Below, in pieces: positions 547 to 28,308 of a stretch of DNA of 28,624 nt (positions are counted from its first letter, which is position 1; each line of letters begins with the position of its first letter). The stretch is taken from positions 1-28,624 of the forward strand of contig CAZDDA010000001.1 in NCBI GenBank assembly GCA_964504085.1, in the 5' to 3' direction. The notes beneath the pieces were generated by a model that was not told the origin of the DNA, did no database searches, and was given only the letters and a program-made list of their open reading frames with translations. This DNA comes from an uncultured Thermotogae bacterium. Lineage in GTDB: Bacteria > Bipolaricaulota > Bipolaricaulia > UBA7950 > UBA9294. The position numbers and the translations under genes are program-made.

Positions 547-759
547 ATGACTTCCGATTGCCTCTCCTGCAGGCACTTTCAGGTCGACGGATCGCCTCGA
601 GTGATCTCTGATGATCATACGTTCGGCCGCTGTTGTCATCCCGACGGCCCCAAGCATCCACGGACGACAACCTTGCGCATTCCGGTGAGCACCAACTTGT
701 GGATCGTATCTGACGGCATGTCATGTGAGCGCCTCGAGGCTCGGGAGAACGCGGCGTGA
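547..759 (+). CDS. Small Cys-rich hypothetical protein (70 aa)
   Basis: CLSCRHF...GRCC...SCE pattern, SD-like GGGGTG, GTGA overlap with the next ORF. Confidence 0.6.
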   Translation: MTSDCLSCRHFQVDGSPRVISDDHTFGRCCHPDGPKHPRTTTLRIPVSTNLWIVSDGMSCERLEARENAA

Positions 760-1064
760 ATAGGCCCGTGCTGTTTTGCAGGGCTCGGATGCCGATGTGT
801 CCGAAATGCTGGCAGCCGCTCTCGCGTATCCAGCTCAACACGGGATCGATGTTCGCGATCTGCGGGTACCGAAAAGGTGGCAGGCGCTGCGGGCAACGTT
901 TGCACGTCATGGGCACGGGCTCCAGCGGCGTGTGTGTCGTCGTTGCACTCACTGAGGAAGAATACGAGTACTACACCAAACATCAGTTCTTGATTTCAGA
1001 GTTGTACGAGGATCTCGGCATCCTCACAACTTTGGAAACACGCGGGAACGTGCCGGCGGCTTGA
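756..1064 (+). CDS. Zinc-ribbon protein (102 aa), possible late-gene regulator
   Basis: CPKC-x17-C-x8-C motif, GTG start coupled to the upstream stop, located immediately before promoter-like P1. Confidence 0.65.
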   Translation: MNRPVLFCRARMPMCPKCWQPLSRIQLNTGSMFAICGYRKGGRRCGQRLHVMGTGSSGVCVVVALTEEEYEYYTKHQFLISELYEDLGILTTLETRGNVPAA

Positions 1065-1089
1065 GCAAATCGCCAGGATTCCCCATTTT
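1061..1089 (+). promoter_or_regulatory. Putative sigma70-type promoter P1: TTGAGC-N17-CATTTT
   Basis: -35/-10-like hexamers with 17-bp spacing, same geometry as the candidate at 9581-9609. Confidence 0.4.
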
Positions 1090-1096
1090 GTAGTCT

Positions 1097-1147
1097 GAGA
1101 GGCCACCGGGCCCCTTCCCCGCTGTGATGCGGGGAGGGGGCCTTTTT
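1097..1147 (+). terminator. 51-nt leader/intrinsic terminator element, copy 1
   Basis: GAGAGGCCAC motif, then a 14-bp GC-rich stem (one G-U pair), 6-nt loop and U5 tract. 47/51 identical to 9643-9693. Confidence 0.85.
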
Positions 1148-1173
1148 GTTTACCGCCACATATGGAGAAGAAA

Positions 1174-1668
1174 ATGATTTCATTCGCACTCGGGCGGATT
1201 CCGAAGATCGGGGATCCGGTAATCAGAAACGGCGACGAGCTCGCGATCGTTGGCTTCGGCGGTCAGGATCCGCGCAATCCAAGCGCGCGCGGGATCGTGA
1301 CTGTAGAGGCGTTCGAGGATGCTCTGATCGTCGTGATTGAAAACAAGCAGTTTCGGTACAAGCTCCGCGCGGATGATCTCCGCTGGAACGACGAGCTCGG
1401 CGCCTTCTACAGCTGGGGCACGCTTCTGTCTGACGAGCAGAAGCGACGCGTCACGGTTATGCGCGATGCCGGCGAGCTCCCGGCTCGAGAGACTCGCCAA
1501 CGAGGACACGGGCCGGCGGGCGGCGAACATCTAAATCTCTACCTCGCGCTGTTCAAGGACCGCAGATCAATAACCAAAGAGCGGATCGCAGACTATCGCG
1601 AGAGATTCGCTCAAAAGCTCGTCGAGGGATACGCCGATCCCGATGCCGACGACTCAACGGAGGGCTGA
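1174..1668 (+). CDS. Hypothetical protein (~164 aa)
   Basis: Track ORF 1162-1668. ATG 1174 is preferred because SD GGAGA lies just upstream. Confidence 0.75.
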   Translation: MISFALGRIPKIGDPVIRNGDELAIVGFGGQDPRNPSARGIVTVEAFEDALIVVIENKQFRYKLRADDLRWNDELGAFYSWGTLLSDEQKRRVTVMRDAGELPARETRQRGHGPAGGEHLNLYLALFKDRRSITKERIADYRERFAQKLVEGYADPDADDSTEG

Positions 1669-1671
1669 TCG

Positions 1672-2145
1672 ATGGCTGACCTGTTATACAACACCGGGAG
1701 CTCCGAGCTCTGGGACGGTACGATCGATCTCCTCACAGACACGATCAAAGGATTGCTGCGAGACAACACCTATACGGCAGACCGAGACAATGATGTCGTC
1801 GACGCAGGGGGTGCGAATGATGTCGTCGACGCCGAGCTCTCCGGTACTGGCTACACTGGGGGTTGGGGTGGATCTGGCCGGAAAACTCTCGCGTCGAAAG
1901 CGATTGCGGTCGACAAGACCAATGATCGGTCGACGTTCGATTGCGCCGACCTCGTCTGGACCGCAATCGACGCAGGGACTGCGGCCGCGCTCGAGATCGT
2001 CAAGGAGGGTGTTTCGGACGATACGACTTCGAGGCTGATCTCGTCACACGACTCCGGTTTTCCGGCGGCGACGAACGGTGGAGACCTCACGGTTACAATC
2101 CCAACGCCGGCGAATGGCGCTCTGATCAACCTGGCGACGGCGTAA
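1672..2145 (+). CDS. Probable virion structural protein (157 aa)
   Basis: N-terminus MADLLYN...WDGTIDLLTDTIK and C-terminal NGGDLTVT resemble a widespread small phage structural family that precedes fibre-like genes (recognised from memory). Confidence 0.7.
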   Translation: MADLLYNTGSSELWDGTIDLLTDTIKGLLRDNTYTADRDNDVVDAGGANDVVDAELSGTGYTGGWGGSGRKTLASKAIAVDKTNDRSTFDCADLVWTAIDAGTAAALEIVKEGVSDDTTSRLISSHDSGFPAATNGGDLTVTIPTPANGALINLATA

Positions 2146-2204
2146 GCGTGGCTTTCCGACTGCCAGCACATACATCGATGACTGAGCAAGGGAGGAGGCG
2201 CGGC

Positions 2205-2348
2205 ATGCCTTGGTATGAGATTTTGGCCGTGTGCGCCATCGTGTGCATATCGGCCATCCCGATTATCTGCCGTCAAAAGCGGCGTCGCTCCGACACGATC
2301 AGTGTGCCCAAGCGGTCCGCCGGTAGTGTCGGGCGCAGTAAGGAATGA
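2205..2348 (+). CDS. Small single-TM membrane peptide (47 aa)
   Basis: Strong SD GGGAGGAGG, then MPWYEILAVCAIVCISAIPIICRQKRRR (hydrophobic helix plus basic stop-transfer). Confidence 0.55.
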   Translation: MPWYEILAVCAIVCISAIPIICRQKRRRSDTISVPKRSAGSVGRSKE

Positions 2349-2352
2349 TGGT

Positions 2353-3105
2353 ATGCAGCTTCTGATCATGAAAGCCGATCACCCGCCGCACTACAAGGGC
2401 GACTTCGTCGAGGTCCGGGCGTCCGGCTCGCCGTTCGGGGGGAAAGAGCCGGAGGCGTTCGTCCTGGTTGAGGTGCCGGGCGTGCCCATGACCGACTACG
2501 AACAATACCGGCGGTCATGGTACTGCGAGGTCGATTTCGAGGTCGTCAACCAGGACTTAGCGCAGGACGGATTTAGACTGCGGATGTACGCCACCAACAA
2601 CAACGGCAGTCTCGGGGCCGTGACGAGGGCCGACGTCGAGGCGTTCATCAACTCGTGGGGTGGGACGGTCCACAGCTTTGGGGCAAACGAAGTGGTGTTT
2701 GACATCTGTATTTTTGATGCGCTCACGTCAGCGGCTTTTTGGGAAATCAATGTGTCGGGCGTGCAGTTCATCGAGACGGCCTATGACCAGGATACTGGTA
2801 TACACCGCATCGAAGCCGATTATTCCGCGATAGGTAACAATCCGACGTATGTCGAGCGGAGGGTCGCAGAGATGGGGCTCACGGTCATCTCGCATGACAA
2901 TCGAGTGCTCACCTACGATGCCGACCGCGCAGTCGTACGGCAGAACTTTGAGCGAGACCTCGCAGAGAAATCGAGACGCCTTATTGCCCGCAGACGGTAT
3001 CACGTCTCCGAGACTATAGTCGATTACATCATCGGTCAGGGTGGTATGGTATCAACCGATCTTCCGACTCTTGCCGGATACATCCAGGACAAGACGACGG
3101 CGTAA
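2353..3105 (+). CDS. Hypothetical protein (~250 aa)
   Basis: Track ORF 2215-3105. ATG 2353 follows SD AAGGA, and the stop abuts the next start (TAAATG). Confidence 0.75.
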   Translation: MQLLIMKADHPPHYKGDFVEVRASGSPFGGKEPEAFVLVEVPGVPMTDYEQYRRSWYCEVDFEVVNQDLAQDGFRLRMYATNNNGSLGAVTRADVEAFINSWGGTVHSFGANEVVFDICIFDALTSAAFWEINVSGVQFIETAYDQDTGIHRIEADYSAIGNNPTYVERRVAEMGLTVISHDNRVLTYDADRAVVRQNFERDLAEKSRRLIARRRYHVSETIVDYIIGQGGMVSTDLPTLAGYIQDKTTA

Positions 3106-4962
3106 ATGGCTGACCTGGTTAGCTGTCTCGTCGACACCGACTCGGGCCCTGGATACGACTATTCGTCACTCAACGCCGCAGATGCGGCGAACTTTGGAGC
3201 CACGAGCGCCGATTTGGTAAGCGAGGACGAATACGTCGAGTGTGAGTGTGCGTGTTCGAGCGGGAGCGCAGACACTGCTGCCGTGCATGTGACTGGGTTT
3301 ACGGTGGACTCAACTCGATATGTCCACATCTTCACTGATACGAACCGGCATAATGGGGCGTGGGACACCTCAGGGTATCGCTTGGTCGTCAACAACAATA
3401 CTGCATGTTTGCGTATCTCAAATTCGTACGTTCGAGCCGTAGGGTTGCAGCTACAGAACACATATCCTACATCAGATAGCTGGCCTCATCGTGAGATTTC
3501 TGCTACTACTGCTGGCACAACGCATGTTCGAATCGACTCCTGTGTCTGTCGTTGTACACGGACGCCGAACACCGCAAATGCCCAGATACTTATGATGAGC
3601 CAAGTCGTCTCGATTGTCGTCAATACGGTCGTCTATGGTGGATACAAGGGCATTCACATCTATTCAGACCAAACAGGACATGAAGTCGTTTGTTACAACA
3701 ACACGGTGGCGGACTGCTCGTATCGCGGCTACGAGTTGGCACCAAAGAGCCCATGGCCAGCATGGACGCTCCATCTAAAGAACTGTCTCGCCGACAACAA
3801 TAATCCCGATTTTTACATCAACACGTTCAATCTCACGACCGATTATGCCGACAACATGTCAAGCGACACGTCGGCACCTGGAGGGGATGCACACCACAGC
3901 GCAAGCAACAGTTTCGCTGGAACCGGTGATTACCACCTAGACAGCGCTGATGATGCTGTCGGTGAGGGAACAGATCTTTCATCTGATTCAACATATCCAA
4001 TCACCACCGACATCGACGGCGACACGCGCAGTGATTGGGACATCGGAGCGGATGAGATCGCGAGTAGTGGCGTTCAAGCAAATGTTTCTCCGGCATCAGC
4101 TACCTGGAACGCGGGTGCAAATGGTGTCCAACTCGGCGGAATTTCCGTCGACGCATCGCCAGTATCGGGGACATGGGCAGCTGGTGCGACTGGGATTTCG
4201 CTCAGCCTCCAGATCACCACGGCCTCAGCCAGCGGTACATGGAATGCCGGGGCGACGGGAATCACCCTCGGCGGGATCGGAGTCTCGGCAGCAAGTGCAG
4301 TCGCAACCTGGAACGCTGGCGCGACTGGCGTTGGGCTTGGCGGAGTGTCCGTCAACGCAGCTCCGGCATCGGGGACATGGGCGGCCGGCACTACCGGAAT
4401 CACGCTTGGCGGTATTGCGGTCTCCGCTGTGAGTGCGGCAGCCACATGGAACGCTGGCGCTTGCAATGTCTCCCTTGGATTGGTCGTCACGCTCTCGAGT
4501 GCGTCCGCCTCATGGCACGCTGGATCGACAGGAATCACGCTTGGCGGAATCTCCGTATCCGCCTCGAGTGCGGGCGGGACTTGGAACGCTCAAGCTCTCG
4601 ACATTTCCCTCGGCCTCGAGGTCTCGATCACGCCAGCATCCGGCACTTGGGGAGCCGGAGCGACAGGCGTCTCACTTGGCCTGGTCGTCACAACCGGGTC
4701 GGCTGCCGCAACCTGGAACGCCGGCGCGACTGACGTCTCTCTCGGAAATCTGGCGATCACGATCTTGAGCGCGGCCGGTATCTGGACGGCAAGTGAAGTA
4801 ACCGTGTCCAGCGCAAATCTGTTCGAACGAGTCTACGGGGGTGTGGCAAGTGCTGAGGCGGTCTACGGGGGCGGTGTCGACGAGAGCGTGGCGATCGATG
4901 GCGGAGGAGTTGCACTGGCAGAAGGCACGTACGGAGGCGCTATCGACGAAGCCGAGCCGTGA
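3106..4962 (+). CDS. Fibre/adhesin-like protein: parallel beta-helix (pectin lyase-like) N-domain plus C-terminal Trp repeats (618 aa)
   Basis: Beta-helix-like strings (VVNTVVYGG, YNNTVADC, LKNCLADN, DYHL...AVGEG, DIDGD.R..WDIGADE) followed by 11 repeats of 22-23 aa. Confidence 0.75.
   Translation: MADLVSCLVDTDSGPGYDYSSLNAADAANFGATSADLVSEDEYVECECACSSGSADTAAVHVTGFTVDSTRYVHIFTDTNRHNGAWDTSGYRLVVNNNTACLRISNSYVRAVGLQLQNTYPTSDSWPHREISATTAGTTHVRIDSCVCRCTRTPNTANAQILMMSQVVSIVVNTVVYGGYKGIHIYSDQTGHEVVCYNNTVADCSYRGYELAPKSPWPAWTLHLKNCLADNNNPDFYINTFNLTTDYADNMSSDTSAPGGDAHHSASNSFAGTGDYHLDSADDAVGEGTDLSSDSTYPITTDIDGDTRSDWDIGADEIASSGVQANVSPASATWNAGANGVQLGGISVDASPVSGTWAAGATGISLSLQITTASASGTWNAGATGITLGGIGVSAASAVATWNAGATGVGLGGVSVNAAPASGTWAAGTTGITLGGIAVSAVSAAATWNAGACNVSLGLVVTLSSASASWHAGSTGITLGGISVSASSAGGTWNAQALDISLGLEVSITPASGTWGAGATGVSLGLVVTTGSAAATWNAGATDVSLGNLAITILSAAGIWTASEVTVSSANLFERVYGGVASAEAVYGGGVDESVAIDGGGVALAEGTYGGAIDEAEP
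4072..4812 (+). repeat. Coding tandem repeat: 11 units of ~66-69 bp (consensus VxxxxASxxxTWNAGATGIxLG)
   Basis: Trp recurs every 22-23 residues, counted in the translation. Confidence 0.9.
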
Positions 4963-4974
4963 ATGGAGGATTGA

Positions 4975-5286
4975 ATGCCGATATACAGGAACAACAACAC
5001 GCGTCTTCCATCCCTCGCCTTTACCGACGAGGACGGGAACCCGATCACGACCGGAACGGTGAATGTGGCCGTCCTGAGCCGGGATCGCGGGACTGAGTAC
5101 TTCTCTAATGCCGCAGCCACCCACGATGCAGGTGGTGTGTGGTATCGCGACATTAGTGGCGTTGATGTCCAGGCCAACATCCCGGCTGCCGTCGCACGTG
5201 CATGGGTGCGCTTTCAGATAGGAGATCCGGTCGTCGCGGAGTTTTGGCGGCTTGAGGCTGTGAAGTTCAGAGAATCTACTACCTAA
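4975..5286 (+). CDS. Small beta-rich protein (103 aa), BppU-N-like/structural candidate
   Basis: SD GGAGG. The FTDEDGNPITTGTVNVAV...GVWY pattern is typical of small phage Ig-like adaptor domains. Confidence 0.65.
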   Translation: MPIYRNNNTRLPSLAFTDEDGNPITTGTVNVAVLSRDRGTEYFSNAAATHDAGGVWYRDISGVDVQANIPAAVARAWVRFQIGDPVVAEFWRLEAVKFRESTT

Positions 5287-5315
5287 TGGCAGTGATCCGC
5301 GCGTGAGACCCCGAA

Positions 5316-6098
5316 ATGCCACAGGTTACCGTCCAACATGACCTAAGCCGCGCTGATCGGTTCATTAAAGGGTACGAGCGCCAGCTGCCGTTCGCCACGT
5401 CTCTCGCAATCAACAACACGGCCAAGGACTTCCAGACTACTGAGCGGGCGCATTTGCTGAGTGAGTTCGAAGTGCGCCGAAGACAATGGGTCGAGCGAAA
5501 CGTCAAGATCAAACCGTTTTCGACAAAGAGAAAACTCGAAGCGAAGGTGGCCGTTCAATCACCCGGGTCCGGTGATCGCTCTGACATCCTAGCCAAGTTC
5601 GAAAAGGGTGGGCTCAAACGACCCACAAAGCGCCAGGCTCTCGCGATACCGGATGAAGCGCGGCGCACAAAAGCTGGCGTGCTCGCCAAGGCCGGGCGCC
5701 CGCGAGCGTTTAGACTCAGGCTTTGGGGAGTGGGCAAAGGAGGGGTGCGCATCTATCGAGGCCGCAAACGCACCTTCATGATCCAATACCCGGACGGCAC
5801 CGGAGGAATCTACCAGCGCGTAGGCAGGCGGTCGAAGCGTAAGTACCGGCGTGTCAGCGGTAGCAGTGGCACACGTGACACCGCCATCCGCACGTTGTTC
5901 CGATTCACAAGCCAGGCGCGCATCGATGATCGGCTGGACTTCGTGAGCACAGCTCAGCGAGTAATACATGTCCGTTTTGGGCCGAACTTCCACGAAGCCC
6001 TTGAGCGGGCAGTGCAGGCGCGTGGCGGTTCAACGCCCAGTCGCCAGCAAGTGCGAATCGCGAAGGCTGACATCTTCGGCAGAGATCGGGAATCGTGA
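5316..6098 (+). CDS. gpZ-like (minor tail Z / tail completion) protein, paralogue 1 (260 aa)
   Basis: Arg/Lys-rich, with QLPFATSLAIN...GIYQR...LFRF...F..NF.EAL..A motifs typical of the Z-like genes found upstream of terminases. Confidence 0.7.
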   Translation: MPQVTVQHDLSRADRFIKGYERQLPFATSLAINNTAKDFQTTERAHLLSEFEVRRRQWVERNVKIKPFSTKRKLEAKVAVQSPGSGDRSDILAKFEKGGLKRPTKRQALAIPDEARRTKAGVLAKAGRPRAFRLRLWGVGKGGVRIYRGRKRTFMIQYPDGTGGIYQRVGRRSKRKYRRVSGSSGTRDTAIRTLFRFTSQARIDDRLDFVSTAQRVIHVRFGPNFHEALERAVQARGGSTPSRQQVRIAKADIFGRDRES

Positions 6099-7027
6099 GA
6101 CGCTGCAGCCGCTGTCTCGAACTGCTTCCACTCAAGTCGTTCTACCGACGGAACGATAGCAGACGCGGGCCGCAAGGCATGGGCTTGTTCGCCGGATCGT
6201 TCCAGTCGGCTCAGTACAGTGGAGTGTGCAAGCAGTGTCATGAAGCAGTACCTAGTCGCAATACTGAGCGGAGACAGGAGGAACGACGTCGATACGCAGT
6301 GACAAGGGGCAAGGAGTACCTCACAGCTGAGCAATTCGCGGAACGTAATGCTGCCCGACGAGTGCCGGAGAACGTCCGGAGAATAAGCCAGCCGGCTGAG
6401 GTTCAATTCGAGCGCGCATTCAGGCGGGCTGTGTTAGAAATCCGGAGGACTCACGTTCCGGCAATCCTGTGGTCCATCGTTCAGCAAAGAGTCAGCAGGC
6501 GGCGTTATGATCGCACCGCATACCGAGAATGGTACAAGAAGAAAGGCGATGCGATACGTGCCGCATATAGGCGCAAGTATCGGAGTAATCCCACTGCCGA
6601 GCGAGCGCGAGTACGAAACTACAAGCACGCCAACCCACATGCCGTCGCGAAGTGGGGTGACAGAAGACGCCGGCGCGCAGCAGCAGCGGATGACGGTACG
6701 CTAGCCAAAGATCGCGTGAAACGTCTGTTCGCTACGACAAAGCGTTGCCACTACTGCGGCGAGCGTTTTACGCACGCAAACCCAGCGACCTTAGATCATG
6801 CGACACCACTGAGTCGTGGAGGTAGGCACTCTATCTTCAATGCCGTCATTTGTTGTCGTAAATGCAATAGCTCCAAAAGGGACAGAACCTACAACGAGTT
6901 CGTTGCCGGTCAACTGGCGCTCATCGGTCATCTCGGGTCCTGTGAGCGCCCTCACACTACGGGTAACGCGCCAGGTCGATGCTCATCTATACACCAACAA
7001 CTGAGGTACCCATGTCGGGTCTTTTAG
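6095..7027 (+). CDS. HNH endonuclease with N-terminal Zn finger (310 aa)
   Basis: CHYC...TLDHATPLSRGGRH...NAVICCRKCNSSK HNH motif, N-terminal CSRC...CKQC, GTGA overlap with the upstream gene. Confidence 0.9.
   Translation: MRRCSRCLELLPLKSFYRRNDSRRGPQGMGLFAGSFQSAQYSGVCKQCHEAVPSRNTERRQEERRRYAVTRGKEYLTAEQFAERNAARRVPENVRRISQPAEVQFERAFRRAVLEIRRTHVPAILWSIVQQRVSRRRYDRTAYREWYKKKGDAIRAAYRRKYRSNPTAERARVRNYKHANPHAVAKWGDRRRRRAAAADDGTLAKDRVKRLFATTKRCHYCGERFTHANPATLDHATPLSRGGRHSIFNAVICCRKCNSSKRDRTYNEFVAGQLALIGHLGSCERPHTTGNAPGRCSSIHQQLRYPCRVF
6935..6980. other. Candidate cos/packaging initiation region
   Basis: GGGTCCT followed by the TGTGAG/CTCACA palindrome (6941-6956) and CGGGTAACGCGCC, about 90 bp upstream of terS, which is the usual position for lambda-type cos. 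Confidence 0.35.
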
Positions 7028-7028
7028 C

Positions 7029-7658
7029 ATGACTCCCCAGAGGAAGAAGAGCAAGAAGAAGGCGACATCGCCCTCCCGGAAATCCACGAAGAGAACCAAG
7101 AAAGCGACATCAGGTAAGAAGAAGACCGCAAAGGCGAAAAAGCCCGTTTCCAAATCCAGATCTCCGGTAGAAAAACGCACCCTTCTTACCCAGACCGAAC
7201 TCGCCCGAGTCTTCGGGGTCACGACCAAAACCGTGCAGCGGTGGGTGGAGCGCGGTCTCCCGCGCGAGGGCGAGGGTCGCAAAGCCACCTACCCTCTTGA
7301 ACCCTGTATCGCGTGGGTGCGGGAGAAGGATCGGGAGGAAGCGATCGATGCCGCGAGGCCGCGGACTCTGGAGGAGGCACGGATCCGGAAAGCGACCGCG
7401 GATGCGGAGCTCGCGGAATATGAGCTGGGCTTGAGGCGGAAGGAGCTCATGACCGTTGCCCAGTACAACGCTGCCGTGTCGGGCGCGTTCTCGAGGGTGA
7501 AAGCTCAATTAGTCACCCTTGAGAACAGACTCGCACCTGACGTGATTGGGATTCAGAAGCTCCTGGACGCACGATCGATCGTCCGCGAACACGTGCAACG
7601 AATCATGCAGGTTCTGTACGACGCCAAAGACGTGCCGGAATATGACGAGAAGGTATGA
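7029..7658 (+). CDS. terS: Terminase small subunit (Nu1-like) with Lys-rich N-terminal extension
   Basis: HTH LTQTELARVFGVTTKTVQRWVERGLP, coiled coil EARIRKATADAELAEYEL, ATGA overlap with terL. Confidence 0.9.
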   Translation: MTPQRKKSKKKATSPSRKSTKRTKKATSGKKKTAKAKKPVSKSRSPVEKRTLLTQTELARVFGVTTKTVQRWVERGLPREGEGRKATYPLEPCIAWVREKDREEAIDAARPRTLEEARIRKATADAELAEYELGLRRKELMTVAQYNAAVSGAFSRVKAQLVTLENRLAPDVIGIQKLLDARSIVREHVQRIMQVLYDAKDVPEYDEKV

Positions 7659-9565
7659 GTCTCGGAGACCGCCTGCACGGAGCCAAAGCCGCACGTCTGA
7701 ATGAGACGCAGTTTCGGCAATCGGTCTTCGCCCCTCCATCCGACCTCACGGTAAGTGAATGGGCGGATAAGCACCGGATTCTGAGCGAGGGTACTTCTCC
7801 AGAACCAGGTCCTTGGCGCACATCCCGCGTGCCCCACCTGCAAGAGATCATGGACGCTCTGGGTAATCCGGCAGTCGAACACATCGTGTTCGTGAAGTCC
7901 TCTCGCGTCGGTGCCACGGAAGCCATCAACAACTTCCTCGGCTACACGATCGACCAGGCGGCGGCCAACACGATGGTCATTCACCCCACCGTCGAGGAGG
8001 CGAAAGGTTGGTCGAAAGAACAGGTCGCACCGATGCTCCGCGACACTCCGCGGCTCAGAAACCGTGTCACTGATCATGAGTCCGGCCGGCGAGAAAGTGG
8101 CGACACGATTCAGTACAAGGAGTTCACGGGCGGGAATCTGGTCATCATGGGAAGCAACAGTGCATCAGGTCTGCGCCGGCGAAACATCCAGAACGTACTG
8201 GGTGACGAGCGTGACGCGCACGCCGCATCGGCGAAGGGTGGTATCAGCAAAGAAGGCGATCCATTCGAGCTCGCGATCAAGCGCACTGAGAACTTCCCGA
8301 TCAGAACCATCTTCGAGGCGTCATCACCTACGATCAGGGGGCTGTCTCGTATCGAGCGAGCATATGCGTTCTCCGATCAGCGACACTACTACGTGCCCTG
8401 CCCCCACTGCGGACACATGCAGGTCCTCAAGTGGCGGAATCTCAAATACACGGTCAAGTCGGACTCCAACCCCGAGACCGAAGAAGAGACCGACGATATA
8501 GACGTCGTATACATCTGTGGTGAGATCTCCAAAGACGGCGAACTCGAGGCGGGTTGTGGAGCAGAGATCACGGAAGAGCACAAGGCGTGGATGGTCCGGA
8601 ACGGCAAGTGGGTGGCGGCAAGACCTGGTCGGAAGGTCCGCGGCTATCACATTTGGGCGGCTTACTCGCTTCTCACGACGTGGTCGAGACTCGTCTCGCA
8701 GTGGCTTCGGGCACAGGGCGATGACGAGCTGCTGCAGGTATTCGTCAACACCGTGTTGGGCGAGAGCTGGAGTGAGACGGGTGAACACGTCCAACACGAT
8801 TCGCTCATGGCACGGAGGGAGCGATACGAAGCAGAGATTCCGAAACGCGCCGGCGTGCTCACTATGGGTGTTGATGTTCAGGGCGATCGTCTCGAGTACA
8901 GCACTTGGGCTTGGGGTGCAGGTGAAGAGTCGTGGCTCATCAAACACGAGGTCCTCTGGGGCGATCCCGCGAAGACAGAAGTGTGGGAGCAGCTGGACCT
9001 GGTGATTGGACGCGCCTGGAGGCATGAGTGCGGCGCCGAACTCAAGGTGAGATCAGTTTGCGTTGACACTGGAGGTCATTACACCGACGAGGTTTACCGC
9101 TATTGCAAGTCCCGAGAGAAATACGGAGTGCACGCAGTGAAGGGGGTGTCTGAACCGGGGCGCGCCGCCGTCGGGAATCCATCCAAGAAGAACCGGGGTA
9201 AGGTGAACCTCTTTCCGCTCGGCACGGAGGCCCTCAAAGACACCATCTTTGCGCGGCTCAAGGACGCCGCAGCCGGTCCGCGTTGCATGCACTTTCCATG
9301 GGTGGACGCCGAATATTTCAAGCAACTCACGTCCGAGGTGGCCTATACGCGGTATGTTAATGGCAGGCCTGTCCGCAGATACGTATTGAAGGAGCATGAA
9401 CGGAACGAGGCTTTGGACTGTGCGGTCTATGCCCTTGCGGCCCTCATCATCCTTGGTCCCGTCCGCGATCAACTGGGTGTGATCGTCGAAGCCGTGCAGC
9501 AGGGCAAGCAACTGACGCAGGCGAAACGTGGCCGGCGCGTCAGGTCACGCGGCATCACCAGGTAA
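7655..9565 (+). CDS. terL: Terminase large subunit, lambda GpA family
   Basis: Walker A VKSSRVGAT, Walker B VLGDE, CPHC Zn site, nuclease acidic motifs GVDVQ, VDTGG and RNEALDC. Confidence 0.97.
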   Translation: MSLGDRLHGAKAARLNETQFRQSVFAPPSDLTVSEWADKHRILSEGTSPEPGPWRTSRVPHLQEIMDALGNPAVEHIVFVKSSRVGATEAINNFLGYTIDQAAANTMVIHPTVEEAKGWSKEQVAPMLRDTPRLRNRVTDHESGRRESGDTIQYKEFTGGNLVIMGSNSASGLRRRNIQNVLGDERDAHAASAKGGISKEGDPFELAIKRTENFPIRTIFEASSPTIRGLSRIERAYAFSDQRHYYVPCPHCGHMQVLKWRNLKYTVKSDSNPETEEETDDIDVVYICGEISKDGELEAGCGAEITEEHKAWMVRNGKWVAARPGRKVRGYHIWAAYSLLTTWSRLVSQWLRAQGDDELLQVFVNTVLGESWSETGEHVQHDSLMARRERYEAEIPKRAGVLTMGVDVQGDRLEYSTWAWGAGEESWLIKHEVLWGDPAKTEVWEQLDLVIGRAWRHECGAELKVRSVCVDTGGHYTDEVYRYCKSREKYGVHAVKGVSEPGRAAVGNPSKKNRGKVNLFPLGTEALKDTIFARLKDAAAGPRCMHFPWVDAEYFKQLTSEVAYTRYVNGRPVRRYVLKEHERNEALDCAVYALAALIILGPVRDQLGVIVEAVQQGKQLTQAKRGRRVRSRGITR

Positions 9566-9580
9566 TTCCTACCGAGGAAC

Positions 9581-9609
9581 TTGCGCCATTTCCGGGGTGT
9601 TCACATATT
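9581..9609 (+). promoter_or_regulatory. Putative sigma70-type promoter P2: TTGCGC-N17-CATATT
   Basis: Hexamers with 17-bp spacing in the terL-gpW intergenic gap. Confidence 0.5.
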
Positions 9610-9642
9610 CGGGTAAGACAATCTGAGCAGTAATCTGTACTC

Positions 9643-9693
9643 GAGAGGCCACTGGGCCCTTTCCCCGTTGGGATGCGGGGAGGGGGCCTTTTT
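9643..9693 (+). terminator. 51-nt leader/intrinsic terminator element, copy 2
   Basis: Same GAGAGGCCAC motif, 14-bp stem and U tract as 1097-1147. The stem differences are C-to-U changes opposite G. Confidence 0.85.
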
Positions 9694-9707
9694 CTTTTGG
9701 GGGACAG

Positions 9708-10034
9708 TTGGCAACCAGCAGCGAACTCTGGCAACGAAGACATACCGAAGTCGTCGAAGCGATCGAAGCGATCGATAACGGCGGCTCATACGTGATCCAG
9801 ACTCGCACCTTCACCTCCGCCGACATGGTAGAACTCGAGGCGATGGAACGCCTGTATGCGATCTATCTAGCAATCAGCCGGATTGAAGGGGGCGCTCAGC
9901 AGTATACGATCGGTCAACGTCGCTTCGGCCGTGGCGATCTTGCCCAGCTTTATTCAGAGCGGCGTGTTGCCAGGATAGCTCTCGCTCGGATCCGACAGGG
10001 CGGCATCCGTGTGAGGCAGGTGATTCCTACATGA
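9708..10034 (+). CDS. gpW-like head-completion/adaptor protein with two tandem gpW-like units (108 aa)
   Basis: Located between terL and portal. Two copies of AI..I..GG..Y.I..R.F...D(L/M)..L. TTG start after SD GGGGA. Confidence 0.8.
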   Translation: MATSSELWQRRHTEVVEAIEAIDNGGSYVIQTRTFTSADMVELEAMERLYAIYLAISRIEGGAQQYTIGQRRFGRGDLAQLYSERRVARIALARIRQGGIRVRQVIPT

Positions 10035-11647
10035 GCACCGCCGTCGTTCCCCGGGTCGAAGTGCCCAAGCCCACAATGATCGACAGGGCGATCGAGTATT
10101 TCGCCCCTCAACGCGCCGTCAGGCGACTCCACGCGCGGGCGGTCTTGAGCTTCGCAAGCGGAGGCTATGACGGCGCTCGCACCGACCGTCCTGCGACAAG
10201 GGAATGGCAGCCTCGAGGCGGAGACGCAGACGAGAACCAGCTGCCCGATCTTCCGATGCTCCGGAGGCGAAGCAGTGACCTCGTGCGCAACGCCCCTGTC
10301 GCCGCCGGTGCTCTTGAGACAACCGCGACTAGCACTGTCGGCGCCGGACTCGTCCTTCATGCCCGCATCGACCGAGATCTCCTCGGACTCTCAGAGAAAG
10401 AAGCAGACGCGTGGGAGCGCGATGCCGAACGTTTCTTCGCTGCCTGGGCCGGGAGTCACGCCTGCGACATCACGAGGCGCCACGATTTCTATACGCTCCA
10501 GGATGTTGTGTTCCGTTCGCAGCTGGAGCGTGGCGACGTCTTGGTGATCCGGCGGTACCGTGAGCGCCCTGGCGAGCTCCTCGGATTGAAGCTTCAGCTG
10601 ATTGAGGCGGACAGAATCTCGAATCCCGAAGACCGCGCTGACAGCGATCGACTGAAGGGTGGAGTTGAGATAGACAGTTTCGGGGCCCCAATCAGGTACC
10701 ATGTCGCAGACAAGCATCCGGATTCCGGTTTGTACCGCGGCCAGAGGCAATGGAAGCCGGTGCCGGCATTTGGTCAGTCGGGAGAGAAGCTCGCTCTACA
10801 CGTCTTCAAGCCGGACCGTGTCGGCCAGACCCGAGGCACACCCATTTTCGCACCAGTGATCGAGACGCTGAAACAGCTCGAGCGCTACACCGGTGCGGAA
10901 CTATCGGCGGCCGAGATCTCCTCGTTCTTCACAGCTTTTATCAAGTCGGCCGTCGAAGCAGAAGCCGGATCCGGTCTCGCGCCTGTCGATGCGGACGATC
11001 CAGATCCACCTGCCGCATCGAACTACAAAATGGGGCCGGCAGCCGTACTCGACTTGGCTCCAGGTGAGGACGTCGAGTTCGCCAATCCGACGCGGCCCAA
11101 CGCGCAGTTCGATCCATTCTTCCAGGCTGTGCTTCGTCAGGTGGGTCCAGCAATCGGTCTGCCTTTCGAGCTGCTCGTCCTGCACTTCACATCGAGCTAC
11201 AGTGCGTCGCGGGCGGCAATGCTCGAGGCATGGCGCAGGTTCATGACCCGCCGCTGCTGGCTAGCCCGTCTCTTCTGCCAACCCTCTTACGAGTGGGCGA
11301 TTACCGAAGGGGTGTTGCGTGGCATCATCTCGGCGCCGGGTTACCTGCAGGACCCGATCATCCGGCGAGCCTGGCTCGGTTCGGAATGGATCGGTGGAGC
11401 TCAGGGTCAAATCGATCCGCTCAAGGAAATCAAGGCCGCCGAAGGCCGTACGACGCTCGGAGTCACGACGCTCGCCGAAGAGACTGCTCAGATGACCGGT
11501 GGCGATTGGGAGCGGAAGCATCGCCAGCGTGTGAAGGAAGAGCGTATGCGACGGCGCGACGGACTGGTCAGCGCGACCGCCTCACTCCCCGACGAGGAAG
11601 AGGCGGACTCCGGCAAGCAGGAAGAGGAGGAAGACCGTGAAGACTAG
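10031..11647 (+). CDS. Portal protein, lambda family
   Basis: GYDGA, RSSDLVRN, DRVGQTRG, YSASRAAML and IDPLKE motifs, plus synteny. Confidence 0.96.
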   Translation: MSTAVVPRVEVPKPTMIDRAIEYFAPQRAVRRLHARAVLSFASGGYDGARTDRPATREWQPRGGDADENQLPDLPMLRRRSSDLVRNAPVAAGALETTATSTVGAGLVLHARIDRDLLGLSEKEADAWERDAERFFAAWAGSHACDITRRHDFYTLQDVVFRSQLERGDVLVIRRYRERPGELLGLKLQLIEADRISNPEDRADSDRLKGGVEIDSFGAPIRYHVADKHPDSGLYRGQRQWKPVPAFGQSGEKLALHVFKPDRVGQTRGTPIFAPVIETLKQLERYTGAELSAAEISSFFTAFIKSAVEAEAGSGLAPVDADDPDPPAASNYKMGPAAVLDLAPGEDVEFANPTRPNAQFDPFFQAVLRQVGPAIGLPFELLVLHFTSSYSASRAAMLEAWRRFMTRRCWLARLFCQPSYEWAITEGVLRGIISAPGYLQDPIIRRAWLGSEWIGGAQGQIDPLKEIKAAEGRTTLGVTTLAEETAQMTGGDWERKHRQRVKEERMRRRDGLVSATASLPDEEEADSGKQEEEEDRED

Positions 11648-16797: not shown

Positions 16798-17517
16798 ATG
16801 GTTGAAATGGACGTGCGCGGGGACTTCACGCCGGCGTTGAGGTTGTTTAGCGCGGTTGAGAGGCAGATACCATATGCCACAGCGGGCGCGATCAACACCA
16901 CGCTCACAACTGCGCAGCGGGAGATCCGTGGAGGTCTCGAGCGCCGTTTCACGCTCCGGAGGAAGCAATTCATAGAACGGACTATCAAAATCAATCGCCA
17001 GGACTTCGCGACGAAGACGAAGCTCGAGGGGAGGCTACAGGTCGATCGCGATCGGCCCGTGTTGGCGAAGCACGAGCACGGAGGCAGGAAACAGCCGAAG
17101 AGCGGCCACCTCGCAATTCCGACCGGGACCAGGCACAGGAGGACAAAGCGTTTTCCAACCCTCAAATCCCGTTACGGGCCATTCAGGCACCAAGGACGGC
17201 GGTTACTCGGCAAGGACAGAACGTTCATTATCGCGACTGGTTCCAGTGCTGGCCTGTATCAACGTACTGGGCGCGGCCGGCGATCGAAGATCAAGCAGCT
17301 TTATGCGTTTAAGCGCTCAGTTCCAATCGAGGCGCGGCTCAGATTCGTGGAGACCGCCACTCGAGTAATACACCGAGACTATGCAAGGAACTTCCACCGC
17401 GCACTCGACCGAGCCATGCACACAGCTAAAGCGAGCGGGGCGATCAGGTATGTCCCGGACGCCATTGGTGCAATCTCAAACGCATTAGGTCGTTCTGCTG
17501 GCTCAGAAGGAGGTTAG
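16798..17517 (+). CDS. gpZ-like protein, paralogue 2 (239 aa)
   Basis: Aligns by eye along its length with 5316-6098 (ERQIPYATAGAIN / ERQLPFATSLAIN, LAIP, RTF, G.YQR.GR, RVIH...NFH.AL.RA). Confidence 0.75.
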   Translation: MVEMDVRGDFTPALRLFSAVERQIPYATAGAINTTLTTAQREIRGGLERRFTLRRKQFIERTIKINRQDFATKTKLEGRLQVDRDRPVLAKHEHGGRKQPKSGHLAIPTGTRHRRTKRFPTLKSRYGPFRHQGRRLLGKDRTFIIATGSSAGLYQRTGRGRRSKIKQLYAFKRSVPIEARLRFVETATRVIHRDYARNFHRALDRAMHTAKASGAIRYVPDAIGAISNALGRSAGSEGG

Positions 17518-17841
17518 ATGAACCAAATGAGTACAGACCGCGAGTTCTTCGATGCGTACGACGCGGTCGAACTCGAGCTTCCCAACGGAAAGACGATTCG
17601 GTGTAAGGCACCGACGCTCGAAGAATCAGCCCGACTGCTTGGGCTACTCCAGAAAATGCAACACGGTGATATGACGGCCATGGGCGAGTTCTTGAAGGAG
17701 TTCCCGAAGGCGGTCGGCGCCGGCAAGGCCTTCAACGGCCTTCTGCCCGGCGAACTCGTGCGAGTAGCAAACCGTTTTTTCTGGCAGACGGACCGGATGA
17801 CAACGGCGGAAACGCCGGCGACGAGCGACGAGTCCGTTTGA
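17518..17841 (+). CDS. Tail assembly chaperone G
   Basis: 107 aa, upstream of tape measure, slippery heptamer near the 3' end. Confidence 0.85.
   Translation: MNQMSTDREFFDAYDAVELELPNGKTIRCKAPTLEESARLLGLLQKMQHGDMTAMGEFLKEFPKAVGAGKAFNGLLPGELVRVANRFFWQTDRMTTAETPATSDESV
17775..17781 (+). promoter_or_regulatory. -1 ribosomal frameshift site T TTT TTC
   Basis: In X XXY YYZ phase with G (CGT TTT TTC). The -1 frame is open without stops into ORF 17838-18113. Confidence 0.8.
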
Positions 17842-18113
17842 ACGACATGCTCGTCGAGTATGCGGGAACCTACGGCGGGCCGCCGCCTCGAGACCTCCCC
17901 TGGCCGTTGTTTGTGTTGCTGGTGCGTGAGTCTGGAAGGTTCAGTGCTCGGAGGCTCCTTGAATTGATGCAGGGAGTGGGCTTCGGAGCCGGCCGTCTAT
18001 TCACAAAGAACGACGCACCCGCACAGGCAATGCAGAACCAGGTCGAGCAGCTGGCATATCCGCAGGAGAGGGAGCCAACGCGGCGGATCATCACGGGGAC
18101 AGATCATGGCTGA
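17838..18113 (+). CDS. T segment of the GT tail chaperone
   Basis: In the -1 frame relative to G, open from the slip site, ends overlapping the tape measure start. Confidence 0.8.
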   Translation: MNDMLVEYAGTYGGPPPRDLPWPLFVLLVRESGRFSARRLLELMQGVGFGAGRLFTKNDAPAQAMQNQVEQLAYPQEREPTRRIITGTDHG

Positions 18114-19863
18114 AGAGCGCGTATCGGTAGTTCTCCGAGCGCGAGATCTCGCGAGCAAAGTTCTGACCGGCATTCGCGGCCGTATGCAACGGCTACGGCA
18201 ATCGGTGTTCTCGCTTAAGGGCGCGATGGTTGGTCTGGGAACTGCGTTTGCGGCTGGGAGGCTCGGCCAGAGCCTTATAACCGCGTTCACGAAACAACAA
18301 GACGCCGTTGTTGGCCTCGGCAGCGCCCTCGAGCAGACCGGCAAGTCCGGATCCGCTGCTCTTGAGCAGCTTACTCGAAACGCGTCGAATCTCCAACGAG
18401 TCACACGCCAGGGCGACGAGGCAATTCTCGCCGCAACCGAGAGTCTGACTCTTCTCGCACCGGCGCTCAACACAAGCGAGCTCGAGCGGGGACAGCAGGC
18501 GATTGTCGGATTGGGAGAGGGCCTCTTCAAAGGCGACATCAACGCCGCAGCTCAGATGCTCGGAAAGACGATCGGCGGCACAACGAACGCGTTGTCGAGG
18601 TATGGCATCGAGGTCGACATGTCCGGATCCGCCACCGAACGTCTAAATCAGATCCTTGAGCAGTCCGCTCGATATTTCGAGGTGGCGAAGGACAAGACCA
18701 AGACGGTCGGCGGGTCGATCCAGCAGTTATCGAACGCGTTCGGCGATCTCAAGGAGACGCTAGGCGGTGTCCTCGCGGATATGCTCGGCCTCACAAACAG
18801 GGCCGGAGGTCTCACCGAGCAGACCTTTGGACTAATCACGGCTATCGAGGAGAACCGCGGCCAGATCGTGGCCTGGGGCCAGGTGGCGATCAGAAGTATC
18901 GGTTTCGTCGCTCAAGCGTTCAAGACTTTGATCCGGAGCGCCTTCAACGTCGGAGAGATTCTCGGACGCGGCCTCGAGATCGCGTTTTCCTCTGTGGTCG
19001 GCGCGGTACTCCGCGGGCTCGAGCTGGCAATTGCAACACCGATCAACTTCCTGATCGAACAGGTCAACCGGATCCCCGGCGTCGACATCGACTTCAGGAT
19101 TGGCGGGTTCGGAGCCGACGCGTTCTTCGCGAACGTGGCGACGCAGACACAGAATCTTCGTGGCGACATCTCGGACCTTGGCGAGACACTCGGCAACTTG
19201 GCGGGCTCGTGGCAGAGTGTAGCCGACTCTGCCGGTCGGGCCTGGGATGTTCAGTCCGGAGCGGCCAACGTCACGCCCGAGGTCCCTACAGCCGCACTAC
19301 TGCCAGCACATGCGAAGCTGCCGTTTGGGCCCCTTGAGGCCCCCTTGATCTCGATCGACGGCGGGACCGCGAAGAAGTTCGACGTTGGTGACACTGTCGG
19401 AAAACTCGGGAACGCTCTCGGCACGATGGAAGGTGCGGCTGGTGCCGCGACGAAAGCCACCGACCAAATGGCGACCACAGTCATCAACGCATTTTCGCAG
19501 ATGGCACAGGCAGCGCAACAGGGATCGGGCGGATTGCTGGGTGGCATCATCGGTGGCGCTGCCGGAATCCTCACCGCGATTCCCGGGGTCGGAACTGTCG
19601 CGAGCGCGGGCATTCTTGCCGGCGGTGGTTTGCTATCGAGCCTGGTGAGCGGTGGAGGTGGCGGGCCGGTCGCGGTGAAAGTCGACAGCTACGGGTCGAA
19701 TGCCATCAGCACGATGCGAGATCTCCAGGAACGCGAGATCAACTTCACGGCAATCATACGCTCGGACGGCGCAGAGGTGTGGCGAATCAACCAGGCGCTG
19801 CTCGAGCTGACGCGCCAGGACGGCACATTCAGGATCCTGCCGGCAGGAGGGTTCGGTGGGTAG
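18106..19863 (+). CDS. Tape measure protein (585 aa)
   Basis: Long Ala/Gly-rich helical protein with a hydrophobic Gly-rich C-terminal segment, located after G/GT. Confidence 0.92.
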   Translation: MAEERVSVVLRARDLASKVLTGIRGRMQRLRQSVFSLKGAMVGLGTAFAAGRLGQSLITAFTKQQDAVVGLGSALEQTGKSGSAALEQLTRNASNLQRVTRQGDEAILAATESLTLLAPALNTSELERGQQAIVGLGEGLFKGDINAAAQMLGKTIGGTTNALSRYGIEVDMSGSATERLNQILEQSARYFEVAKDKTKTVGGSIQQLSNAFGDLKETLGGVLADMLGLTNRAGGLTEQTFGLITAIEENRGQIVAWGQVAIRSIGFVAQAFKTLIRSAFNVGEILGRGLEIAFSSVVGAVLRGLELAIATPINFLIEQVNRIPGVDIDFRIGGFGADAFFANVATQTQNLRGDISDLGETLGNLAGSWQSVADSAGRAWDVQSGAANVTPEVPTAALLPAHAKLPFGPLEAPLISIDGGTAKKFDVGDTVGKLGNALGTMEGAAGAATKATDQMATTVINAFSQMAQAAQQGSGGLLGGIIGGAAGILTAIPGVGTVASAGILAGGGLLSSLVSGGGGGPVAVKVDSYGSNAISTMRDLQEREINFTAIIRSDGAEVWRINQALLELTRQDGTFRILPAGGFGG

Positions 19864-24802: not shown

Positions 24803-25065
24803 ACCCAGAGCTTGGCGCGGTCGTGGGTGTGGCCATCACGGGCGGGATCGCAATCACAAAGATCATCGACCGTTTCTGGCCACAGAACGGCAACGGAAAA
24901 GTTGAGATCCTGCTTGCGCGACTCGTCGAACTGGCGGAGGAGGACAGGAAGGACCGGGCTGAAACGTCTCGGTCGCTTGCACTGATGCAGCGAGAAATGG
25001 AACAACACGAGAAGCGCGAGTCCCAGGCCTGGCGGGACGCGTTCGCGCTGCTGAGGAAGGAATGA
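24799..25065 (+). CDS. Single-TM plus coiled-coil protein, holin/lysis accessory candidate (88 aa)
   Basis: N-terminal hydrophobic helix, ATGA overlaps with the tail gene and endolysin. Confidence 0.7.
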   Translation: MNPELGAVVGVAITGGIAITKIIDRFWPQNGNGKVEILLARLVELAEEDRKDRAETSRSLALMQREMEQHEKRESQAWRDAFALLRKE

Positions 25066-25544
25066 CCCACTACTCGCATCGCTCGCTTACTCGTCTCCGG
25101 ACGTGCCACGACGAGCTCGAGCAGCTCATGCTCGAGGTGGACAAGCATTTCCCGAACACGGTCCTCGAGGGGAAGCGCACGATCGAGCAGCAGCGGAAAA
25201 ACGTCGCGACGGGCGTGTCGAAGACAATGGACTCCCGACACCTGGACGACCCGTCGAATGCGGTCGACGCTGCTCCGGATCCACTTTCGTGGCCAAAGAT
25301 GCACGCCGACCTGGCCGAGCTGCTGGAACGCATGTCCGCTCAACAGCGACGAGAGATGGCGAAACACATCCTCGGCTACGCCAAGCAATTGGCTCATTGG
25401 TATTACTTCGGCGGGTTTGTGCTGGGAACGGCGGCGCAGATGGGAATCAACATACGCTGGGGCGGCGACTGGGACGGCGATCGGCAAGTCCATGATCAAT
25501 CATTCGATGATTTGCCTCACTTCGAACGTAGCAAAGGAGGATAG
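25062..25544 (+). CDS. Endolysin, M15 family L-Ala-D-Glu peptidase
   Basis: EGKRT.EQQ, SRH, AVD, RWGGDW and DLPHFE Zn-peptidase motifs. Confidence 0.93.
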   Translation: MTHYSHRSLTRLRTCHDELEQLMLEVDKHFPNTVLEGKRTIEQQRKNVATGVSKTMDSRHLDDPSNAVDAAPDPLSWPKMHADLAELLERMSAQQRREMAKHILGYAKQLAHWYYFGGFVLGTAAQMGINIRWGGDWDGDRQVHDQSFDDLPHFERSKGG

Positions 25545-26420: not shown

Positions 26421-26451
26421 AAAAACCCCCCGCGCGTTGAACGCAGAGGGT
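26421..26451 (-). terminator. Intrinsic terminator closing the minus-strand accessory block
   Basis: Minus strand ACCCTCTGCG-TTCAA-CGCGCGGGGGG followed by TTTTT. Confidence 0.6.
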
Positions 26452-27581: not shown

Positions 27582-27645
27582 CTAGTCAACCTTATCTTGC
27601 AATACGCCATAAAATGCCGGTTTGTTCCTGTTTGTCTAGGGTGTT

Positions 27646-27666
27646 CCTCACCATCTCCACGCATCC
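27646..27666. repeat. 21-bp direct repeat copy A (CCTCACCATCTCCACGCATCC)
   Basis: Exact match to 28309-28329. Confidence 0.9.
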
Positions 27667-27667
27667 A

Positions 27668-28252: not shown

Positions 28253-28308
28253 AGAATCCTCGAATCACAACCTAGCATGCCCATTTTTCGCTCCTCGTCT
28301 ATCCTTTC

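Follow-up and report, generated by a model that had tools for sequence, protein, structure and literature searches.

Late-gene antitermination is a textbook mechanism, and detailed knowledge of it comes from very few systems (Q, N and put). Here we describe two related promoter-leader-terminator cassettes of a lambda-like temperate siphophage of metagenomic origin, which lie on a 28,624-nucleotide (nt) stretch of contig CAZDDA010000001.1 (assembly GCA_964504085.1). This whole stretch is termed the window. Each cassette stands directly ahead of a block of late genes and is probably a switch that needs antitermination. Near-identical strains of the phage are found in several other assemblies.

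Several described systems resemble this arrangement in part. In lambdoid phages, the late promoter PR′ is always active, and its transcription is terminated immediately downstream in lysogeny until Q acts, which leaves a short RNA (PMC7547250; PMC9388147). The put RNA of phage HK022 comprises about 70 nt, folds into two long stem-loops with bulges and a triplex, and acts processively on distant terminators with no dedicated protein known (PMC9378689). The targets of ANTAR proteins are pairs of hexaloop hairpins whose loops carry A first and G fourth; the second hairpin overlaps the terminator stem (PMC8934654). Finally, the conAn system of pLS20 combines a leader RNA element of a very long operon with a small adjacent protein, and terminators there guard against spurious transcription (PMC8191782).

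Two cassettes ahead of late-gene blocks

The segment at 1097–1151 recurs at 9643–9697 with 50 of 55 positions identical (91%, from a repeat search of the window), which is far beyond chance. Within it, comparison of the copies bears out the initial annotation, which had described a 51-nt element with 47 of 51 positions identical. Two of the differences (1114 C/9660 T and 1122 C/9668 T) are C-to-T changes in the 5′ arm of a stem, opposite G, so that G-C pairs become G-U; one lies in the loop (1125 T/9671 G) and one in the linker (1107 C/9653 T). A fifth difference, 1148 G/9694 C, falls inside the U-tract, beyond those 51 nt.

Each copy begins with the motif GAGAGGCCAC, whose exact sequence occurs in the window only at these two sites, and continues into an intrinsic terminator (T1 in copy 1, T2 in copy 2). 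These are the top two plus-strand matches of a terminator scan of the window (15 pairs, 6-nt loop, TTTTT). Their folding energies are −36.3 kcal/mol for T1 and −31.3 kcal/mol for T2 (z = −4.05 and −3.28); none of 200 shuffles folded equally stably. Over about 26 kilobases (kb) of rightward late genes, they are the only strong terminators on the plus strand.

Both copies lie just downstream of the pattern TTGNGC-N17-CATWTT and directly ahead of a late-gene block, as had been described and as the site scan and gene layout confirm. The pattern occurs exactly twice on the two strands of the window (1061–1089 and 9581–9609, against 0.00 expected from 100 shuffles); it was derived from these promoter-like sites (P1 and P2) themselves, and the count shows only that there are no further copies. 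A leader peptide was ruled out on reading the sequence, as the leaders have no start codon with a ribosome-binding site.

Behind T1 come GGAG (1165–1168) and an ATG at 1174, and behind T2 come GGGGGA (9699–9704) and a TTG at 9708. The first of these genes heads a block that passes through an HNH gene, terS and terL, and the late genes of the window, from terS through the holin, are all on the plus strand. The genes behind are essential, namely the gpW-like gene, the portal, the protease, gpD and gpE. As a strong terminator 10–22 nt ahead of these genes leaves no room for a promoter, and the conserved promoter-like site lies upstream, transcription must pass the terminator.

The balance of our analysis tips towards each cassette being a regulated terminator gate before a late block, of the lambda pR′-tR′ kind. 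Such a gate would consist of a modest sigma-70-type promoter, a short untranslated leader, a very strong Rho-independent terminator and then the ribosome-binding site of a late gene. By default, polymerase arriving from the local promoter or from upstream would stop at the terminator and leave a short RNA, of about 50 nt at copy 1 and about 80 nt at copy 2. Only an override of the terminator would allow expression of the pre-terminase and terminase block at copy 1 and of the head-tail-lysis block at copy 2. From the sequence we infer that the promoters fire, that termination is efficient and that read-through is regulated.

The same layout could be that of plain insulators. T1 would end the short leftmost unit and shield the late genes from read-through coming from the prophage edge or integrase side, and T2 would end the terminase unit. 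The late genes would then be reached by leaky termination or by a generic site-independent antiterminator, of which phage examples such as gp39 of P23-45 exist (PMC3351154), and the purine tract would only lengthen the hairpin through its pairing with the U-tract. T1 does follow the stop of the open reading frame (ORF) at 756–1064 and T2 follows terL, and, given an attP-like region at about 270–540, copy 1 would stand some 700 nt from one end of the prophage. We regard insulation alone as possible though rather unlikely. Even so, it would be a useful annotation, as these would be the only strong rightward terminators of the late region.

Table 1. Positions of the cassette parts and of the main genes in the window
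Feature	Position	Strand	Remarks
Small Zn-ribbon ORF	789–1064	+	91 residues from ATG 789, 102 residues from GTG 756; CPKC...C...C
Promoter-like site P1	1061–1089	+	TTGAGC 1061–1066, 17-nt spacer, CATTTT 1084–1089; predicted start about 1096–1097
Conserved 5′ motif GAGAGGCCAC and 1-nt linker, copy 1	1097–1107	+	directly abuts the T1 hairpin
Possible mini hairpin GGCC-ACCG-GGCC	1101–1112	+	occupies first bases of T1 5′ arm; candidate anti-terminator
Intrinsic terminator T1	1108–1151	+	15-base-pair (bp) stem, loop TGTGAT, U-tract TTTTTGTTT 1143–1151
First gene behind T1, 164 residues	1174–1668	+	no function assigned; starts 22 nt past U-tract
Nu1-like small terminase, terS	7029–7658	+	family search
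gpA-type large terminase, terL	7655–9565	+	family search
Promoter-like site P2	9581–9609	+	TTGCGC 9581–9586, 17-nt spacer, CATATT 9604–9609
Leader of copy 2	9610–9642	+	about 27 nt of transcript before motif; copy 1 without it
Conserved 5′ motif GAGAGGCCAC and linker T, copy 2	9643–9653	+	
Intrinsic terminator T2	9654–9698	+	15-bp stem, two G-U more than T1, loop TGGGAT, U-tract TTTTTCTTTT
gpW-like head-tail adaptor	9708–10034	+	TTG start 10 nt past T2 U-tract; opens head-tail-lysis block
Lambda-family portal	10031–11647	+	
S49 protease, gpD-like and gpE-like head proteins, tail genes	behind portal	+	
Endolysin	25062–25544	+	
Holin, three transmembrane segments	25848–26366	+	

Conservation and leader RNA in related phages

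Relatives were reached by protein searches with terL and the portal. No close cultured relative was found: the best cultured relatives in a tblastn search with the portal are at most 45% identical, and megablast of 12 kb of the window against 50,697 phage records gave no match. The near-identical strains (L054–L062) show no variation in either copy.

The relatives that carry the cassette fall into two lineages, A and B. Lineage A includes L103, whose terL is 84% identical to that of the window. Between terL and gpW, L103 has an inserted gene of 195 residues on the reverse strand (2816–3403, with hydrophobic segments), and the cassette still stands before gpW with the 5′ end of this reverse-strand gene as its upstream neighbour. 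DNA homology to the window restarts 4 nt before the −35. Copy 2 and L103 agree at 54 of 55 positions of the element, 9 of 9 of the −35 region and 8 of 8 of the −10 region, while the spacer (9/17), the leader (21/32) and the flanking genes (72–77%) have drifted. This pattern is the footprint expected of a promoter plus a selected element and points to purifying selection. That the cassette has remained beside gpW shows that its terminator is more than the end of the terL gene and that the cassette belongs to the downstream block.

Lineage B was found via portal protein homology alone, not via the motif. It comprises two prophages on one 464-kb contig (L124 and L125), with portals 59% identical to that of the window, and L128 (= L190), with a portal 88% identical to those of L124 and L125. 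In the same place these have TTGCRT-N17-TAnnTT, a leader of 70–80 nt, an 18-bp terminator of unrelated sequence and a U-tract. Against the hairpin stands the motif, as GAGAGGACCAC in L125, GTAGAGGACCAC in L128 and GGAGCGTCAC in L124, with the common form GAGAGG(N)CCAC. As it is kept next to a different stem, the 5′ motif outlives the turnover of the terminator stem. In all six sequences (the two copies and L103, L124, L125 and L128), the N17 geometry with A2 and T6 of the −10 is invariant, a GC-rich hairpin is followed immediately by a U-tract as in intrinsic terminators, and the distance from U-tract to start codon is short. The initial annotation had held that its reading would fail if the element were simply the terminator of the upstream gene and the 5′ motif were not conserved in relatives. 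The motif is conserved, even in a lineage with an entirely different stem, and the gene that precedes the cassette in L103 is on the reverse strand, with its 5′ end next to the cassette.

Several points of this record weigh against insulators. In L103 the cassette is parted from terL by a reverse-strand gene and stays with gpW; in all six sequences the conserved promoter-like site lies upstream of the terminator and not downstream; the motif persists across lineages in which the stem has been replaced; and a plain terminator has no need of the covarying hairpins of lineage B described below. On the other side, terminators after terL are also present in a few unrelated lambda-like phages (L028, L030 and L090). 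Most of the approximately 50 distinct terL relatives that were checked have no terminator after terL, and the feature is lineage-specific.

The description of a twin module holds for the phage of the window, which has two copies, but not for the relatives examined, which carry one cassette. In addition, upstream of a 66% homologue of the gene behind copy 1 there is a gap of just 12 nt. The single cassette at terL–gpW in relatives, together with this gap, indicates that terL–gpW is the ancestral place and that the twin arrangement is peculiar to this phage.

The terL–gpW junction is a hot spot for moron-type insertions, with reverse-strand ORFs after terL in L103 and L104 and a small ORF in lineage B. 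Lambdoid phages are known to carry morons equipped with a promoter and a terminator of their own. An emptied moron that has lost its gene, kept its promoter and terminator and been copied once by recombination would be at home at such a hot spot. However, the element is identical at 54 of 55 positions against a background of 72–77%, with conserved hexamers; the architecture is kept at 59% portal identity and the leader hairpins covary; and selection would act against a useless strong terminator placed 10 nt ahead of essential genes. A functionless leftover is the least probable of the explanations considered here.

Wider searches recovered no other members. In IMG/VR, the motif patterns gave only chance matches in coding regions with no terminator behind them, and the promoter pattern of lineage B matched nothing besides the L128 contig. 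The invariant 3′ arm GCGGGGAGGGGGCCTTTTT has 14 scattered, unrelated matches in 185,579 species genomes and one unrelated match in IMG/VR, none of them with the 5′ arm or the motif. Since these matches are few and unrelated, a host repetitive element (of the repetitive extragenic palindrome or miniature inverted-repeat transposable element type) or a common host terminator was rejected. The covariance model proposed in the initial annotation, built from motif and terminator and run over about 2 megabases of related loci, scores its six training sequences at 57–73 bits and finds no further copies; the next matches, at 23 bits, are tRNA-associated terminators in L036. Rfam is empty for the whole window at the gathering threshold, and permissive scans of both kinds of module gave only sub-threshold generic hairpins.

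The leader of lineage B has the order GGGCC-(A)ACA-H1-(A)ACA-H2-ACA-terminator, in which H1 and H2 are extra 5-bp hairpins with loops of 5–7 nt. H1 is GGCGC/GCGCC, GGACC/GGUCC or GGGGC/GCCCC, with loops of 6, 7 and 5 nt; H2 pairs fully in L124 and with a single mismatch in L125 and L128. MAFFT aligned the two lineages poorly, and the helix test for lineage B was made on a hand-registered alignment. There, 95.6% of the cells pair, compared with 20–47% in slid controls, and both partners have changed in four pairs, a count that 2 of 500 shuffles attain. Stems that covary while their loop length varies indicate an RNA structure and not a site on duplex DNA.

A protein site on double-stranded DNA, such as an operator or roadblock or a terminase or regulator site, could stand beside the terminators by chance. 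Lineage B has 2.5 tandem units of about 19–21 nt, roughly two helical turns, and small Zn-ribbon ORFs end on the −35 in both lineages, two points in favour of such a site. Yet the half-sites of H1 differ between relatives while staying complementary (in DNA, with GGTCC as the partner of GGACC), and their spacing varies from 5 to 7 nt, which is the behaviour of an RNA stem and not of a DNA recognition site; moreover, the motif has its position fixed to the hairpin and not to the promoter. A DNA site is very improbable. Measured from the predicted start, the motif lies at about +1 in copy 1, at about +27 in copy 2 and still farther along in lineage B. A place that is constant with respect to the hairpin but shifts with respect to the promoter points to an element acting together with the terminator.

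In transcripts folded without the 3′ arm, the opening bases of the terminator are paired with the upstream GG(G)CC in all six sequences. In the window this corresponds to the mini hairpin competing with the stem base that had been proposed initially: it is part of the minimum-free-energy structure of transcripts truncated before the 3′ arm, and the loop base at 1107 differs between the copies while the stem is the same. In lineage B the GGGCC is complementary to the first GGCCC of the terminator, and RNAfold without the 3′ arm gives a three-way junction in all three phages. The other pairing proposed, of GAGAGGCC with GGCCUUUU, is predicted by RNAalifold but is inseparable from the mini hairpin by sequence alone.

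In the regulated gate, the recognition element would most likely be the purine-rich GAGAGG(N)CCAC against the hairpin. GGCC (in lineage B, the GGGCC that closes a small three-way junction) would pair with the first 4–5 nt of the terminator 5′ arm, and a factor stabilising this pairing would uncouple the hairpin from the U-tract, so that polymerase would read through. This anti-terminator helix, the simplest model of the mechanism, takes up about half of the likelihood that we give to a regulated gate as such. If the motif is the recognition element, the cassette would be a compact and portable (about 90–140 bp) conditional terminator with a new specificity determinant, the motif would be a handle for finding the partner factor, and lambda-like phages would be able to gate the head operon apart from the terminase operon. 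It is unlikely, but worth stating, that the cassette is an undescribed phage antitermination device in the full sense, namely the short RNA motif GAGAGG-N-CCAC joined to a terminator and, in some lineages, supplemented by hairpins, giving read-through alone or with the upstream Zn-ribbon protein, controlling head-gene entry in this lambda-like clade and duplicated here.

The short RNAs could also be the product for which the cassettes exist. They would then be two paralogous small-RNA genes for a stable RNA of 50–130 nt, made for example in lysogens, with the single-stranded 5′ GAGAGGCCAC as seed for a host target, and their site before the late genes would be tolerated since late transcription is antiterminated anyway. 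A promoter, a conserved single-stranded 5′ stretch, a hairpin and a U-tail are the layout of trans-acting small RNAs, the predicted start of copy 1 is the first G of the motif, the whole 55 nt and not only the structure is conserved between copy 2 and L103, and in Stx phages the short PR′-tR′ transcript is itself a regulatory RNA (PMC7547250). However, the complement GTGGCCTCTC of the motif is absent from the window even with one mismatch allowed, the motif is internal at copy 2 and in lineage B (about 27–75 nt from the predicted start), and no Rfam small-RNA family is found at threshold. The genes behind would still require read-through, and a small RNA complements a gate more than it competes with one. 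As the sole explanation, small-RNA genes are distinctly unlikely, and a small-RNA pair could coexist with the gate, as StxS does.

Several points weigh against a regulated gate. The sample comprises six distinct sequences from two lineages, and terL relatives at 54–59% identity and below, outside these lineages, mostly have no terminator at the site. P1 and P2 match the sigma-70 consensus at 7 of 12 positions, under the 9/12 cut-off of the promoter scan. The lineage A motif is only about 11 nt long, and a competitor of 4–5 bp facing a stem of 15–18 bp needs outside stabilisation. The closing helix P0 and the mini hairpin are invariant and so lack covariation support; the competing hairpin of the initial annotation thus holds up in the truncated folds and in its GGGCC/GGCCC analogue of lineage B, but not through changes in the pairing itself. 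The GGNCC-rich repeat pairs in several registers, and L125 folds differently inside P0. In the RNAalifold consensus of all six sequences, GAGAGGC pairs with GCC+UUUU instead, which favours insulators. Finally, no Q, N, RinA/ArpU, ANTAR or NusG-like protein is found among the neighbours scanned with Pfam and PHROG (ORFs 24–1064 and 1162–7027, and 6 kb upstream in L059). With no Rfam match and no known antiterminator family nearby, it had been fair to call the element one of a type not recognised.

Candidate partner and surrounding genes

The TGA (1062–1064) of the Zn-ribbon ORF lies inside the −35-like hexamer of copy 1. The encoded protein has about 30 distant homologues (E 1e-12 to 6e-4) and is modelled by AlphaFold2 with a predicted local distance difference test score of 87.7. 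It has no fold match in PDB or BFVD and no Pfam or PHROG family, and neither tblastn nor a search of IMG/VR yielded relatives. In lineage B, Zn-ribbon ORFs of 64–70 residues also end on the −35 of the cassette; homology between these and the ORF of the window is unsupported, with an hhalign probability of 12% and only the CPxC knuckle aligned. This adjacency is a lead and not evidence; the product of the Zn-ribbon ORF is a candidate partner of the cassette. A Cys-rich ORF of 70 residues (547–759, CLSC...CC) overlaps it from upstream, and the two form a two-gene unit between the attP-like region and copy 1.

The attP-like region contains a tRNA 3′ fragment on the minus strand (about 358–402, reverse complement ...GTGGGTTCAAATCCCACCGTCCCGA). 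On either side of this fragment stand the direct repeats CCGTAGCAA(A/T)A (279–302 and 509–532), which are likely integrase arm sites. The integrase gene lies directly left of the window start, as seen in the sister contig L059.

Between copy 1 and the terminase genes, an ORF of 618 residues (3106–4962) without a family match has about six internal repeats of 46–104 nt at 4091–4745. These share a ACCTGGAACGC(N)GG core, and the ORF may encode a repeat-containing fibre or decoration protein. The gene at 5316–6098, also in the pre-terminase block, is a paralogue of a tail-region gene at 16798–17517 (phrog_1924, ‘minor tail protein’), and L124 has at 685–3878 paralogues of window 17518–19863, also upstream of terS. 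Such paralogues ahead of terS in both phages indicate that structural-type genes have been duplicated before the terminase in this clade. L124 further carries an IS1595-family transposase at 5756–6730, just upstream of terS, in one of the two related prophages on the 464-kb contig.

Several assemblies break between CGGGTAACGC and GCCAG at about 6965–6975 of the window, about 60 nt before terS (window 6865–7030; L055 and L056 1–165). L055 and L056 begin with about 95 nt unrelated to the window (CGGGCGGACATTC...), and GGGTAACGC upstream of terS is kept in L103 (1–60) and L125 (6830–6870). The breaks may mark a cos/terminase site or else a polymorphism in the presence or absence of the HNH gene at 6095–7027.

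At the right end, the rightward late block and the leftward genes converge at 26425–26451. Here, just past the holin, lies a minus-strand terminator of 11 bp for a leftward gene of 360 residues that is ClpP/SDH-protease-like. Further on, a 60-nt direct repeat (75%; 27614–27673 and 28277–28336) stands where two leftward genes of the presumed early or lysogeny region begin, and may be a common promoter or operator or a 5′ untranslated region.

Comparison with described antitermination systems

The closest likeness is to lambda PR′-tR′-Q. By geometry, a promoter followed closely by a strong intrinsic terminator before late genes is found at both copies and in four relatives, and a small ORF ends at the promoter, as Q does, although this likeness is one of position only. 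In contrast to the lambda system, no Q-family protein is found among the scanned neighbours, and on reading the sequence the cassette has no conserved −10-like pause element in the initially transcribed region. That of copy 1, GAGAGGCCACCGGGCC, contains no TAnnnT-like hexamer, and where copy 2 has TAATCT about 20 nt downstream, L103 has TAATTC instead. The element of the cassette is fixed against the terminator and not in or near the promoter, the predicted transcript is much shorter than lambda 6S RNA, and the phage of the window has two such cassettes, of which the second falls within the structural region, between terL and gpW. The cassette resembles a PR′-tR′ gate in logic; it is not a member of the Q system, because neither a Q gene nor a pause element was found.

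HK022 putL and putR are likewise two related sites per phage downstream of promoters, and small stem-loops are shared, of which lineage B has two. The cassettes differ from put in that the lineage A element comprises the terminator and about 11 nt, the hairpins of lineage B have 5 bp, no Rfam match exists, and the element always abuts one particular terminator.

Lambda N and its nut sites share with lineage B the GC-rich 5-bp hairpins with purine-rich loops of 5–7 nt in a promoter-proximal leader, and there are two sites per genome. However, a boxA (CGCUCUUUA-like) is absent from 1040–1160 and 9570–9700 with one mismatch allowed. None of the lineage B loops (CUUGGA, CAGGAGA and CGAGA) is a GNRA-like pentaloop, a boxB-type hairpin is missing from lineage A, and no arginine-rich N-like gene is evident downstream of the cassette.

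The dual hexaloop of ANTAR targets and the ribonucleic antiterminator (RAT) of BglG/LicT resemble the cassette in having tandem hairpins 5′ of a terminator, a short helix that competes for the stem base, and local control (PMC8934654). In contrast, the loops seen here (CUUGGA twice, CAGGAGA, CAAGAGA, CGAGA and CAGUAGA) have 5–7 nt with C first. The second hairpin of lineage B adjoins the terminator, from which ACA separates it, and hairpins of this kind are absent from lineage A. Neither an ANTAR nor a CAT/PRD protein turned up among the neighbours.

The conAn system is similar in placing a leader element at the start of a long operon, with a small protein encoded alongside. It differs in that accounts of it, from Gram-positive plasmids, present conAn2 as a large RNA element and ConAn1 as a processivity factor, and no sequence or family link to the cassette was found. 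The motif also resembles the ...CCAGAGAGG... loop of the PyrR binding site (RF00515); cmscan at E up to 10 gave no match to that family on window 1040–1180 or L125 9510–9690.

The locus is notable for a strong terminator 10–22 nt before essential packaging and head genes, and for a specific motif conserved beside a hairpin whose sequence has turned over, in an uncultured phage lineage. Lacking the features that define put, nut, ANTAR targets and the PyrR site, the proposed gate is the known PR′-tR′ logic in a new form.

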